A DNA stretch of 39,037 nucleotides from positions 1-39,037 of IMG/VR virus record IMGVR_UViG_2778261428_000004; one strand, written 5' to 3'. The position numbers and the translations under genes are program-made. Each line of letters begins with the position of its first letter. Position 1 is the first letter of the stretch. This document shows, piece by piece, positions 14,459-28,244 of this stretch. Source of the stretch: a virus (Duplodnaviria; Heunggongvirae; Uroviricota; Caudoviricetes). The notes beneath the pieces were generated by a model, which was not told where the DNA came from, did not search any database, and saw only the letters and a list, made by a program, of their open reading frames with translations.

Positions 14459-16624
14459 TTATTGAGGTGTCTCGGCTACTCCGCCGGAGGGGATTTGAAC
14501 TTGACGCATAAGATTCGCGAAATCCATGCGTTGTGAATGAGTCTGGTCTGCATCTTTAAGAAGCAGCTCAGCGTTAGCACGAGCATCTTTGCTGCGCTGT
14601 TGCTGGAATTGACCTACGAGCTTGAGGTACTCACGCAGTTCTGCCTGCTTGTCGAGGTCCATATTGTTGAAGATTTCTGCAATCTTCGCGGCGTTGAGTT
14701 GGTTTTGGGCTTCAACCTTGGCGGCTTCAACCTGAATCTGCGCCTGTTGGTTCTCTGCCTTGAGCAATTCAGCCTGACCTTGCAGAAGGATACCCTGAGC
14801 CTGAATTTGCTCTGCTGATGGCTGCTGCGGCTGTTGTTGTGCCTGCTGCACCATCTCCATCTCTTCAGGTGTTTCTGGTTTCTTCAGCCCCATCATCACC
14901 AGTTGCTTGTTCGCGTACTCTCGCATCATCTCGACGCCTTTACCGTCAAGCAACGTGAAGTATTGCAGCATCAGCATCTGGAACTCTGGAGTACCTTGCG
15001 GAACCTTGGTTAGCAACTCCTGAATCTCTGCGCGATTCTGTTCCTTCATGCTCTGGAAGGATGGCCCAACGTCTGTATAGCACTCATAGCGACCGCGAAT
15101 GTCGTTGAGTGTGACCACATTGCCGGACTGGTAATCGACAACTTGCGCGTAGAGTTGAACGTCTTTCTCGCTACCATCTTCAAGTGTCAGCGTTACATGG
15201 CGAGGAACGTCATAAATATCGTTGACCATTGAGGCATAAATCTCGCCATCACGTCGCATTGCGGTAGCCAGGTTATCCTGAAACACGTATGTCTCAAGGT
15301 CTGCCCGCATGTTCAGTTGATTGACGGTATCGAAAGCGACCTGAGAGTTTGCCGCCTGCGCATCCACGCCAAGACTAGCCACCTCTTTCACTGCGTTGGT
15401 GGCAGCCTCAAGCATGTAAGCGTTGGCTTGCGGCACTTCAGGGTTTTCCATGTAGGAGATTGGACCAATCGGCAGGTCGTTACCGTTTTCATCGGTCCTG
15501 TTCTGCAGATAGTACGGATAGTCATCATTTCCACCGTACATGTATTCGTAGCCTTCGATTTGCTCAGGGAAGAAGGTCGGTTTCTTCTTCGGTGAACGAG
15601 CAACAATATCGGCGTTGAACGACATGATCATGTTACGAAGGCGTTGACCGTCTTTCGTCAGCCTTACCACTCCCTCGTAGCACTCCTTGTCACCAGCAAA
15701 TGACCATTCTCCATACACTGGAACGATTGGGATATGCTCTCCGGCTATCTTCTCGCGATCTTTCAGTATCTGCGTGCAGGTGATGATCGACTTATACACA
15801 CGCCGACGCTTCACCTTGCGCTCTGCTACCTTAATGAATCCACGATTAGCCAGGTCGTCGATAACGTCTTTAATATCCTGCTGGTAATAGCTGACCGGCT
15901 CACCTGTCAGCGGGTCGCGGTAGATGAAGACTTTCTCCTTCTTCTCTTCTACCTCGTAATACTCGGCGACGTAGACGACATCATTCGATACCCACGGAAA
16001 CAGCCATGTGTCGTTCGGATTCTGGAAAGATGGCAGGGTGTCAGGATCAATACCGTAATCCTCTGCGAACTCTTTCCAGCCATTGCGTGACAAAGCGTTA
16101 ATCACCGTGCAGTGCTTAGCGTCGCTCTTATCCATCTGCTTGCTGTTGGCGTCCCATATGACGTGTGAGCAGGCTTCATGGATTGGAAGGCGTCGGATTA
16201 CCTGATTGTTGCTTGTTGGGTCGTTGTCTTCGTACTGCGTGACCAGACGCCATGCACCAACGCCGGACTCTATCTGCTCACGAACGCCAACGTTAACAGC
16301 AATCTTTGCCGTGTTATGGCGCATATCAGTACGATACATCCCCATCAACACATCGGCAGCATCAGGATTAGCGCCGTCTTTTGGTCTGAAGAGAACGTCG
16401 ATAGGGTTACGGCGCATCTCTGCGACCAGTTTCCTGACCACCGGGCGAACAACATCGAATTGTCCGCGATATTGCAGGGTCGTGTAGTTTGATAGCCAGT
16501 CATCCCATTGCGACACTCGGCTAAAATACAGGTCATTTGTCGCCTCGGTTCTGGCTTCATCGCTCGCCATCCAGTCTGCGTCAAACTTACACAGAATGGA
16601 ATTGAGTCTGTTTTCGTCGGCCAT
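14459..16624 (-). CDS. Portal protein, P22 gp1-like
   Basis: 721 aa; directly downstream of the large terminase; Gln-rich C-terminal barrel-like tail as in P22 portal. Confidence 0.85.
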
Positions 16625-19275: not shown

Positions 19276-19714
19276 CACAACCTCGTCTAGTTGTTCGCCA
19301 TAGATTCAGTGGCAGGCGGTGACGATTCCGCTTTTCGGGAGCTACCCTAGCCACTGCTTTATTCTATCCGATGTCTTTCCATCAGTCCGCCACCACAAAG
19401 AATCTTTTTTGCCATAAGGCAGGAGGTTCATCTTTCAGTGGCTGCCAGTGTTATTTCCCCACTTTCTGGCTTGGGTTGTTTCGCTGTACTGCCGTAACTG
19501 GTTACCCAGAATAAATTTTGGTTTCATTATCAAGCCCATCCGTAGATAGGCTTTGTAATGAACTGGCTCTTATCTCAACGCAGCCCATTACTGCGCGCCT
19601 GATGCTCAACTTCAAGCATCAGCAATGAGATGTTTAATCTGGATTCACTCCAGAAGTGATCACCACCCTGTCTACAGAGCCAGATGTGAAGGATGATGAG
19701 TAAAATTATCGCTA

Positions 19715-24943: not shown

Positions 24944-26824
24944 TTAATACTCCGTCACGTTTTCCTGTCGCCACGCCTCGTCATATTCCGATTTCGGCAT
25001 ATTGGCGATGTAGCTATATGGCGATCCTGATTCAAGTTGCAGGAACTGGTGCGATTGCTCGTCAAGGAACAACGGGACACCACCCTCCCAACCTTCGCCG
25101 TTACGTTGTTTTTCAAGCATCAAAACAGATGCCGGAGATGCCAGTAGCTGTTCGTCCTTCTCTGACATCTTTTCACCACTCTGAACTCTCTGTAACGCTC
25201 TCTCGCGAGCCTTGTTACGCCAGATGATGAAAAGGTTGTCTGTCAGGTCTGTTATCGCTCCAGAGCCTTTTACGTCCATTTTCCCGGTTGGTTTTTCTTC
25301 GCTGTCTCCTTTTCGCGAGTGAGTAACGAGAATGACGTGGGAGTTTGTTTTGTTTTTGAAGTCGCAAATCGAGTCAACAAACGCCTTCTGCCCGTTATAG
25401 TCATCGTCGCCTATGCCACATTTCATCAGGCTGTCGATGATGAATAACTGGATACCGTATCGGCGGCGAGCGTAGTCGAATATTTCGATCAGCCTGTCGG
25501 CTTTCGCCGTTCCGGTCAGGCCAAACACCCAAAGTCTTTCGTCATAAAATTTAAATGCAGAGTCAATTTCCAGCACTGGCGGCATCTTGCAGCACGTTGC
25601 CTGACGGGTAAGTCGCTTAAGGAGAATGCCTGGCTTCAGCTCAAGTGACGCGATGCACGTCTTCACACCCTGACGCATTGCCTCAAGTGCCATATGCCCG
25701 ACAACCTCCGTTTTTCCGTGACCGTTCACACCATTGACCAGCGTCAACTCTGCCTCACGGAACTGGAATTTATCTGCCAGAGATTCCCACGGTGGATTAA
25801 ACAGATACTGCTGCTTGCCGTAGAAAGCGTTGATAGTGTCCTGGTAAAACTCTCGCGCACTGTAGAGTTCTTCAGGATCGAAGTAGGATGCCGTGCCGAT
25901 GTACTGCCAGATTTCATCCTCGGTAACACCGTTCATCAGGCATTCGTTGATGTCTTTGTACGGCAGAGTAACAAGACGGCAACGATGTTCACCGAGTCGG
26001 CTTGCGATTTCCCTTGCGGCTTCACGACCAACATCATCAACGTCCATCGAGATGAATATCTCCTCAAACCTGTCGAGGTTGTGATACTCAAACTCAATCC
26101 ACTGTTGCTTAGCACCTTTCCCGCCACCAAACGGCACGGATAACGCCGAGATGCCGTATTGCGCATAGCTCATACAATCAATTTCGCCTTCGCAAAGCAC
26201 AACCGCCCTCACGCCAGCGTCCAGAGCCTGCCATCCGAACAGACAAGGTTCGCAATCACCTTCTGCCATAATGACTTTCTTCCCGTCCGGGCGCTCAGTG
26301 CTGATTCGCTTGACCTGCAACAACTCACCATCGCGTTTGTACGGAAGCACCAGAGCATCCAGTTCTTGTTCTCCATTCCACACCTTGCCGCTGACAACCT
26401 CGTAGCGCTTTACGACTTCTGGCGATATGCCACGCGATTGCAGGTACTCAAGATGGGATTCTGTTCTGGTAACGTAGCGGGCGATTTTCTTGCGATCAGG
26501 TCTGGAGAATTTCTTCTCACGTTTGGCATCGAAATGGTGATCGTCATCCTTGATACCGAGAAATGCTTTCGCTTCCTGCATAGCCTGATGCAGGTTAATT
26601 CCTCGACATGCCATCCACAAATCAAGCATGTCACCGCCGTCTCCCTCAGCGAAATCAGCCCATTTTTTCTTGCCGCTAAGGTTGACCTTAAGGCTGTTTC
26701 CCTTGTCACCGTTGACGTTACCGGCAACCCACTCATGCCCCTCTTTCTTGCCGTTCGGCAACAGGTGCGGAGCCACCCTGTCAACCTGCGCCCAAAGCAG
26801 GTCGCTAAGTTCACTTGGCGTCAT
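24944..26824 (-). CDS. Bifunctional primase-helicase (Toprim primase domain fused to DnaB/RecA-like helicase domain)
   Basis: Toprim-like VVLCEGEIDCMS; Walker A GVNGHGKT; Walker B-like LFIIDSL; 626 aa. Confidence 0.75.
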   Translation of the reverse strand: MTPSELSDLLWAQVDRVAPHLLPNGKKEGHEWVAGNVNGDKGNSLKVNLSGKKKWADFAEGDGGDMLDLWMACRGINLHQAMQEAKAFLGIKDDDHHFDAKREKKFSRPDRKKIARYVTRTESHLEYLQSRGISPEVVKRYEVVSGKVWNGEQELDALVLPYKRDGELLQVKRISTERPDGKKVIMAEGDCEPCLFGWQALDAGVRAVVLCEGEIDCMSYAQYGISALSVPFGGGKGAKQQWIEFEYHNLDRFEEIFISMDVDDVGREAAREIASRLGEHRCRLVTLPYKDINECLMNGVTEDEIWQYIGTASYFDPEELYSAREFYQDTINAFYGKQQYLFNPPWESLADKFQFREAELTLVNGVNGHGKTEVVGHMALEAMRQGVKTCIASLELKPGILLKRLTRQATCCKMPPVLEIDSAFKFYDERLWVFGLTGTAKADRLIEIFDYARRRYGIQLFIIDSLMKCGIGDDDYNGQKAFVDSICDFKNKTNSHVILVTHSRKGDSEEKPTGKMDVKGSGAITDLTDNLFIIWRNKARERALQRVQSGEKMSEKDEQLLASPASVLMLEKQRNGEGWEGGVPLFLDEQSHQFLQLESGSPYSYIANMPKSEYDEAWRQENVTEY

Positions 26825-26931: not shown

Positions 26932-27792
26932 TCACCTGTCGAAAAACACGTAGCCAGTTTTCGATACGGTGATTGCGGATGATGGTTTAGATTGTGGTTG
27001 AATGGTTTCTGGCTTTTCGTCGTTCCAGCGCTGACCGTTCAGGTAGCTCGATGGTAACAACCTGTCGAATCCGAACTGCTTACCATTCCTGCATGCGATG
27101 TCTTCTGCCAGCATCGTGGCAAACTCGCTTGCCGTACCCTTGGTAGTTTTACGCCATTCCCTGAACTGTGTTCTGAATGCCGTAGCTGCGTTTTTCTTCC
27201 CGGCTTTCCGCATGCCTGCACACCAGAATATTTCCTCGAATGCCTTGTCGGTTTCTTCGTGACGGTCAGGTGATTTTTCACACTCCGTCCGAACACTTTC
27301 GGACATAGTGTTTTTATTATTTCTTTTTTCTTTTGTAATAGTTTCTTTTGTGTGTCCCTGTTTTGGTGACAGCGCTGTCACCGTTTTGGTGACACTTTTT
27401 GTCACCAATGCAGTGACATTATCACCAGAGTAGTGACACCCTTCGATTTTCCATTCTTCGATGTTCTTGTTAGGCCCGATTTGCTGGCCTTCGCGAAGGA
27501 TAACCTTCATCGCGATAAGCTCATTCTTGGCCTTGTTTACCTTCTGTCTTGGCAGCCTGGTAATTTGAGCTAACTGACTATCAGAGATGCGATCCATCTT
27601 TTTACCGTAGCCGTATGTTTTACGGCATATGGCGTGGGCAACCTTGCTCTGATTTTTCGTTAAATCTGCGCCGATAAGCTCTTCATACAGGGCATTTGCA
27701 AGACGGGTATAACCATCTTCAACTTCTGCCACACGACGCTCCACAGGCCGTTGTGAAGGCCTTAAATGTGTTACGGTTGCAAGATTACTCAT
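26932..27792 (-). CDS. Replication initiator, lambda O-like (N-terminal origin-binding domain family)
   Basis: Position after cII/orf48; internal iterons and AT-rich tract in the linker-coding region, as in lambda O/ori. No close sequence recall for the C-terminal domain. Confidence 0.65.
27305..27440. other. Candidate origin of replication: about 7 GGTGACA/TGTCACC iterons at roughly 11-12 bp spacing, followed in gene orientation by an AT-rich tract
   Basis: Seen directly: TTTTGGTGACAGCGCTGTCACCGTTTTGGTGACACTTTTTGTCACCAATGCAGTGACATTATCACCAGAGTAGTGACAC, then the AT-rich 27305-27355. Lies inside the O-like gene. Confidence 0.6.
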
Positions 27793-27931
27793 GACCTTTC
27801 TCCTTCTGCATCAGCTTCACTTTTTCCAACTCAGCCCGGAATCGACCAGGCTGCTTGAAGCTGGACAGGAAGCGATCACGTAGTATGTGTTTGTGAATTT
27901 TGTCCTGGTAAGAACTGAGTTGTTTTGTCAT
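27785..27931 (-). CDS. Small hypothetical protein (48 aa) between cII and O-like genes
   Basis: ATG 27931 with AGGAG upstream; stop overlaps the O-like start. P22 has a 48-codon ORF at this position as recalled. Confidence 0.45.
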
Positions 27932-27965: not shown

Positions 27966-28244
27966 TCAGGCCTCGAAGAATTCGCCGTTCTTCGGGGCTT
28001 TTTCTTTTGTCAGCATTCTGGCTACTTTCTTAGCCAGTTCCGCCAACTCCTCGTCTTCAACACCCCATTCAAGAACAGCCAGAAGCATTCCCATTTTTGG
28101 GATGAAGCTGTCTTTCCATCGTGAAATTTGCGATTCATTAATCCCTAACGCGTCGGCCACCTTTCGCTGACCACGTACAGCAATTCGATTCAGGATGTTG
28201 CTTGTAATTGCATTCGCTTTCTTGCGAGTACTTGTAAGTTGCAT
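27966..28244 (-). CDS. cII: Transcriptional activator cII-like
   Basis: [29 protein letters not shown] matches the lambda CII core as recalled. Confidence 0.85.

Follow-up and report, generated by a model that had tools for sequence, protein, structure and literature searches.

The DNA analysed here, a stretch of 39,037 nucleotides in the following called the window, represents a lambdoid phage or prophage of E. coli with a mosaic structure, of whose right-hand 25 kb the closest phage records cover 38-56% and no more. Its early operon comprises cI on the plus strand, followed on the minus strand by cro, cII, a DUF2740 open reading frame (ORF), an O-like replication initiator gene, a primase-helicase gene, NinB and Dam, a gene order typical of the lambdoid early-right operon. 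Within the O-like gene lies a cluster of short repeats, and the features relevant to it are as follows (positions are those of the window):

26932..27792, minus strand: O-like replication initiator gene (286 aa ORF; Phage_rep_O match; PHROG 'replication initiation O-like')
27451..27735, minus strand: predicted winged-helix DNA-binding domain, aa 20-114 (Pfam and AlphaFold2 model), with a predicted recognition helix at aa 82-94
27420..27438, minus strand: iteron 1, sense strand TGTCACTACTCTGGTGATA, aligning with lambda ITN1
27400..27418, minus strand: iteron 2, sense strand TGTCACTGCATTGGTGACA, aligning with lambda ITN2
27376..27394, minus strand: iteron 3, sense strand TGTCACCAAAACGGTGACA, a match to the family consensus, aligning with lambda ITN3
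27353..27371, minus strand: iteron 4, sense strand TGTCACCAAAACAGGGACA, the right half of which runs into the box ACACAAAAGAnACTATTACAAAAGA, aligning with lambda ITN4
27305..27352, minus strand: AT-rich region, the presumed DNA unwinding site (48 bp, 18.8% GC), homologous to the AT-rich regions of lambda and ES18
27280..27311, no strand assigned: inverted repeat to the right of the AT-rich region, with the core GTCCGAA-AGTG-TTCGGAC at 27287-27304
24944..26824, minus strand: primase-helicase (626 aa; ORF, Pfam and PHROG), with a Toprim and a DnaB-like ATPase domain, similar to ES18 gp61 and the presumed partner of the O C-terminal domain

The neighbourhood of the O-like gene contains two further elements. 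The DUF2740 ORF (48 aa, 27785-27931, minus strand) overlaps the start of the O gene and resembles orf48 of P22 and HK022. Its family is labelled 'tail protein' in PHROGs, a label repeated in several RefSeq records, which looks like an annotation error, because the ORF is located in the replication operon. On the plus strand, at 27968-28000, a strong terminator-like hairpin with 14 pairs and a T run is located antisense to the 3' end of the cII gene (27966-28244, minus strand). Its position and orientation are those of the lambda oop RNA terminator, and an equivalent feature is annotated in P22. A scan of the window against Rfam yielded the int-alpA sRNA at 19295-19357 (minus strand; 46.2 bits, gathering score 35.8) as the sole match, with none within the origin region.

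The O-like protein belongs to the Phage_rep_O family (PF04492, aa 20-114, E = 1.1e-37 in Pfam), and the repeats occupy gene nucleotides 355-440 (aa 119-147), directly after the DNA-binding domain. The heptamer GGTGACA, or its complement TGTCACC, occurs in exactly four copies at 27365-27406 (ten in the whole 39-kb window, where 3.97 are expected). Further half-sites, i.e. AGTGACA at 27412 and 27432, TATCACC at 27420 and TGTCCCT at 27353, raise the number to eight, in good agreement with an earlier note on this DNA, which had counted about seven copies at roughly one helical turn. The eight TGTCAC/GTGACA half-sites are spread over 27353-27438 and lie 11-12 bp apart, with one gap of 8 bp. Six exact hexamers fall within 90 bp, whereas dinucleotide-preserving shuffling of the window (1000 rounds) never gave more than three. 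The half-sites combine into a 19-bp dyad, TGTCAC-N7-GTGACA, as the repeat unit, of which there are four copies with start-to-start distances of 20, 24 and 23 bp; one base is off-consensus in the right hexamer of iteron 1 and likewise one in that of iteron 4. The consensus of the family is TGTCAC-C-AAAAC-R-GTGACA, with CAAAAC as the usual centre.

The earlier note had also singled out a perfect palindrome, GGTGACAGCGCTGTCACC. A perfect copy of 18 bp is indeed present at 27365-27382; however, it does not represent the repeat unit but the junction of iterons 3 and 4. If the functional unit nevertheless followed the register of the palindrome, O would bind GGTGACA-N4/5-TGTCACC with the half-sites facing the other way, as could be suggested by the perfection of these 18 bp and by a second such pair with a 5-bp gap at 27388-27406. 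In this register, however, the gaps are inconstant (1, 5 and 4 bp in the window; 4, 5, 9 or 10 bp in relatives), while the gap from TGTCAC to GTGACA is 7 bp in 46 of 49 cases in relatives. Moreover, the arrays of relatives start with a TGTCAC half and finish with a GTGACA-like half, and an alignment with the mapped lambda iterons is obtained in the N7 register only. We therefore consider the palindrome register distinctly improbable and take the dyad TGTCAC-N7-GTGACA as the unit.

Outside the O gene, the 39-kb window yielded no further repeat cluster. GGTGACA copies at 26629-26635 and 26704-26710, near the start of the primase-helicase gene, were evaluated as additional O sites and rejected as chance matches, because they correspond to G-D codons of the primase-helicase gene and one of them is also present in ES18, which possesses lambda iterons. 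A dyad-like match at 15386 was likewise discarded as chance, with a mismatch in each half and without neighbours.

The very AT-rich stretch that had been described behind the repeats is found as well. At 27305-27352 the GC content drops to 18.8%, compared to 47.5% for the window, and only 2 of 38,989 48-nt windows show a lower value; on the sense strand 32 of the 48 bases are A. Since the gene is encoded on the minus strand, the stretch follows the iterons in gene direction, while on the plus strand it precedes them. The box ACACAAAAGAnACTATTACAAAAGA, located after iteron 4, is conserved even in lambda, ES18 and P22. The inverted repeat at 27280-27311, which lies partly beyond the interval considered in the earlier note, constitutes a third origin element. 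Its position is the same in every locus whose C-terminal domain is of the ES18 type, and in Providencia-type loci it carries a double compensatory change, from GTCCGAA/TTCGGAC to GAGCGAA/TTCGCTC.

Loci L006, L084, L117 and L136 were used in the comparison of inverted repeats. Different GC-rich palindromes are found at the same place in other classes of C-terminal domain, e.g. CCCCC-TAAA-GGGGG in P22.

In its anatomy, a lambda-type origin is defined by an initiator of the Phage_rep_O family, by four internally dyad-symmetric repeats of about 19 bp, 20-24 bp apart and placed in the initiator gene directly after the DNA-binding domain, and by an AT-rich region that directly follows the iterons and is itself followed by an inverted repeat. 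The window shows each of these elements. As in lambda, the origin is located inside the gene at the junction of two domains, and its four 19-bp dyads, with the same 20/24/23-bp spacing, can be aligned column by column with lambda ITN1-4. The CAAAAC centre is shared with lambda TCCCTCAAAACGAGGGA, the iterons begin at gene nucleotide 355 (349 in lambda), and a homologous AT-rich region (ACACAAAAGAnACTATTACAAAAGA) precedes the inverted repeat. In contrast to lambda, the half-site is TGTCAC instead of TCCCTC, the two N-terminal domains share no more than 53% identity, the C-terminal domains are unrelated, and a primase-helicase takes the place of P. Thus, the locus does not represent a lambda replicon in the strict sense, which combines TCCCTC-N5-GAGGGA iterons with an O C-terminal domain paired with the P loader; here the half-site is TGTCAC and the downstream gene encodes a Toprim/DnaB-like primase-helicase. 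Neither lambda P nor the C-terminal domain of lambda O showed similarity to the module of the window. These comparisons bear out the earlier proposal of an iteron-type origin inside the O-like gene, with the geometry of lambda ori and non-lambda iterons, and we regard it as very probable that 27280-27438 is the phage's lambda-type replication origin, embedded in its own initiator gene.

The two halves of the O gene have different relatives. The segment 27320-27792, i.e. the N-terminal domain, the iterons and the left part of the AT-rich stretch, is 99.6% identical to PhiR12_1 to _5, which beyond this shared part encode a lambda-type C-terminal domain and P. The segment 26932-27365, comprising the AT-rich stretch, the inverted repeat and the C-terminal domain, shows 92-95% DNA identity to ES18 (gp59 O-like, gp61 primase/helicase) and likewise to epsilon34 and g341c. 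With its ES18 counterpart, the primase-helicase shares 94% protein identity, and at the corresponding position of the ES18 GenBank record a rep_origin 'similar to lambda ori' is annotated. Hence, the O gene is a mosaic whose N-terminal half is of the PhiR12 type and whose C-terminal half is of the ES18 type. The crossover falls within about 27320-27365, where the PhiR12 and ES18 matches overlap in the conserved box. Because ACACAAAAGAnACTATTACAAAAGA is conserved across all specificity classes, it is likely to be the joint at which homologous recombination swaps the domains. In keeping with the ES18-type module, the ES18-type C-terminal domain is followed by a primase-helicase of about 626 aa; ES18 differs, however, in having a lambda-type N-terminal domain and lambda-type iterons, neither of which is found in the window.

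According to the earlier note, the distinct specificity of the initiator was coupled to the downstream primase-helicase. This part of the proposal is not supported by the distribution of the modules. Identical iterons occur in the PhiR12 phages together with P, and the TGTCAC module is joined altogether to four partner classes, i.e. the ES18-type C-terminal domain with primase-helicase, the lambda-type C-terminal domain with P, DnaB-like helicases and IstB/DnaC-like ATPases. ES18 shows the reverse pairing, a primase-helicase together with lambda iterons. The type of C-terminal domain, in turn, is linked to the partner: in every intact locus examined the ES18-type domain is accompanied by a primase-helicase, and the lambda-type domain always by P. 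L006, evaluated as an exception to this rule, was rejected, since the locus is decayed: its O gene is truncated and no long ORF follows downstream. As the partner type follows the C-terminal domain, iteron specificity, assigned to the N-terminal domain, and the choice of the partner, assigned to the C-terminal domain, would be uncoupled.

Some phage primase-helicases recognise their own origins. As the partner here is a primase-helicase, the O sites might serve in control (autoregulation or titration), with replication starting at a site recognised by the primase-helicase, as for P4 alpha or N15 RepA. Against this stands the full layout of iterons, AT-rich stretch and inverted repeat, which is homologous to lambda ori. 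Furthermore, the same iteron module is found in phages with P, DnaB-like or DnaC-like partners, which lack a primase-helicase, and the window holds only the one repeat cluster. A mere control function is thus highly improbable.

To evaluate how the iterons vary with the initiator, we carried out an unbiased scan with the O N-terminal domain alone as query and one genome per species, which provided 27 prophage loci across Enterobacterales. All 24 loci with a domain 66-99% identical and with downstream sequence present show TGTCAC-type dyads directly after the domain (at least three dyads in 23 of the 24). In these loci, which were chosen by protein, nearly all TGTCAC-N7-GTGACA dyads of each locus of about 7 kb sit directly after the domain. 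None of 80 lambda-type loci contains TGTCAC-type dyads; their N-terminal domains are 100% identical, so that they are usable as a negative control only. Conversely, when IMG/VR was scanned at the DNA level alone for two units next to each other, 119 loci were obtained; in about 90 of them the array is immediately preceded by the coding sequence of an O N-terminal domain, 46-99% identical to that of the window (mostly 61-99%). With more distant domains the half-site changes and the layout remains: phiEt88 (60% identical domain) has TGTTACC-N5-GGTAACA, P22 (52%) TTTACC-N5-GGTAAA and a prophage of Erwinia dacicola (48%) TTAGCC-N5-GGCTAA. TCCCTC half-sites are found in lambda and ES18, whose domains are about 53-54% identical to that of the window. 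The type of iteron thus follows the clade of the O N-terminal domain, which supports the distinct initiator specificity inferred previously. By this covariation the TGTCAC iterons appear to be one specificity class among several within the O family, matched to its own clade of N-terminal domain.

Conservation at synonymous positions was determined on loci picked by protein, since loci found via the DNA pattern represent a biased sample. For 20 such relatives, the identity with the window at third codon positions amounts to 0.94 in the half-sites, 0.66 in the spacers and 0.47 in the N-terminal domain. The half-sites are translated in different frames, as C-H, G-D, V-T and L-S-P, and the clade-specific residues C119 and H120 are nothing but iteron 1 in translation. 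Thus, the repeat is kept as DNA and not as protein. The iteron region does encode a repetitive V-T-rich stretch, and the repeats might therefore be regarded as a by-product of such a protein linker, functionless as DNA. The same half-site is, however, read in three different frames, and its synonymous positions are 94% conserved compared to 47% in the domain; in addition, the exact array spacing of lambda is kept and the half-site changes along with the DNA-binding domain, which leaves a linker by-product with a very slight probability. Intrinsic termination of antisense transcription, suggested by a terminator scan that lists 27364-27383 and 27376-27394 (plus strand), is of negligible probability, as the hairpins would have short stems of 8 pairs and weak T tails (TTTTGG, CTTTTT), such a pattern arises automatically from dyad iterons with A-tract spacers, and the half-site sequence rather than the pairing is conserved.

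Regarding the protein side of this specificity, the AlphaFold2 model of the N-terminal domain is of only moderate confidence (mean pLDDT 65.8), with values of 85-91 over aa 71-100, and shows the element order of a winged helix (helices 46-59, 71-78 and 82-94; strands 98-101 and 104-107). Foldseek searches with the model of the N-terminal domain gave weak matches to MarR/CRP winged-helix proteins, none of them at E <= 0.001, and a search of the Protein Data Bank returned no solved relative of O. Therefore, the fold assignment follows from the order of the secondary-structure elements. Q83 and V85 are the only positions of the DNA-binding domain which are conserved in the clade yet different in all four other specificity types. 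According to the model both are located at the start of the predicted recognition helix, which makes them candidate specificity residues only.

In analogy to the lambda system, O-like dimers would bind the four iterons via the N-terminal winged-helix domain and form an O-some, in which the DNA would be bent at the A-tract centres. For such binding and for initiator-dependent replication, the covariation of domain and iteron and the selection on synonymous sites provide indirect support. The resulting strain may then open the adjacent 48-bp A-rich stretch. In lambda, P and host DnaB are used from here on; in the present phage the ES18-type O C-terminal domain would most likely bring in the phage's own primase-helicase, as suggested by the co-occurrence of the two. 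The module of N-terminal domain and iterons would be exchanged independently of the module of C-terminal domain and partner, probably by recombination in the conserved box.

Two related readings go beyond this mechanism and are possible, yet rather doubtful. In the first, the ES18-type C-terminal domain would load its own primase-helicase directly on a lambda-type O-some, so that the replicon would fire without host DnaB, DnaC or DnaG. In the second, Q83 and V85 would form a simple, reprogrammable code that determines the half-site, and TGTCAC, TGTTAC, TTTACC, TCCCTC and TTAGCC, set in one fixed geometry, would provide ready-made orthogonal origin-initiator pairs.

The likely division of labour within the initiator is in line with what is known of related phages. 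Hybrids of lambda with phi80 and with 82 reportedly assigned origin recognition to the N-terminus of O and the interaction with P to the C-terminus. A segment of lambda O consisting of its N-terminal 162 aa binds the origin (Wickner and Zahn 1986, as cited in PMC2629481). The specificity of origin binding varies among O-type proteins, each having its iterons in its own gene (PMC8022706), and lambdoid phages accordingly differ in origin specificity (PMC8022706, PMC2629481). The origin in gene 18 of P22 likewise contains iterons of its own specificity within the initiator gene and ends in the conserved A-rich box, but differs in the half-site, TTTACC-N5-GGTAAA, and in the partner, the DnaB-like gp12. 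The origin of phage L also has iterons of its own specificity in the initiator gene, in this case six 11-bp repeats.

Plasmid Rep proteins such as RepE, pi and RepA are, similarly, winged-helix initiators which bind repeated sites beside an AT-rich stretch that is unwound. Plasmid iterons, in contrast, are direct repeats, bound by monomers and located outside the rep gene, and no sequence relationship of the O-like protein to iteron-binding plasmid Rep proteins was detected.

TGTCAC/GTGACA arrays were also observed inside ORFs which do not belong to the Phage_rep_O family (IMG/VR loci L037, L050, L072, L077, L079, L100, L105 and L120). They show a period of about 22 bp and directly follow an N-terminal winged-helix domain (Pfam HTH_36, with weak similarity to DnaD_N/RepL). 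Iterons in the own gene, just after the DNA-binding domain, thus recur in another initiator family.

The exact module of the window is present in GenBank in the isolated, viable phages mEp043, Sf101, SEN22 and vB_EcoP-720R6, whose whole O genes are 98.6-99.2% identical to that of the window with identical iterons. The phages of the PhiR12 series, which share the N-terminal half, are isolates as well. Among 5,426 complete E. coli genomes, 181 contain the module. It is annotated as 'replication protein O' and nothing more; the records of mEp043 and PhiR12_1 carry no origin annotation, and the Sf101 paper does not discuss an origin. A description of TGTCAC iterons was not found in the searchable literature, which mostly does not take in older subscription papers, and searches with the iteron sequence gave only unrelated primer sequences. 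The kind of origin is thus textbook, while TGTCAC is a new, undescribed specificity class of this well-known origin type.

In conclusion, the finding leaves the understanding of lambda-type origins unchanged and adds to their family a well-defined specificity class, TGTCACCAAAACRGTGACA. It provides a clean natural example of two modules, N-terminal domain with iterons and C-terminal domain with helicase partner, which are joined at a conserved box. The class can be used to annotate origins in many prophages, allows predictions on mutual interference in replication, or its absence, among lambdoid phages, and suggests candidate residues for the engineering of orthogonal initiator-origin pairs.
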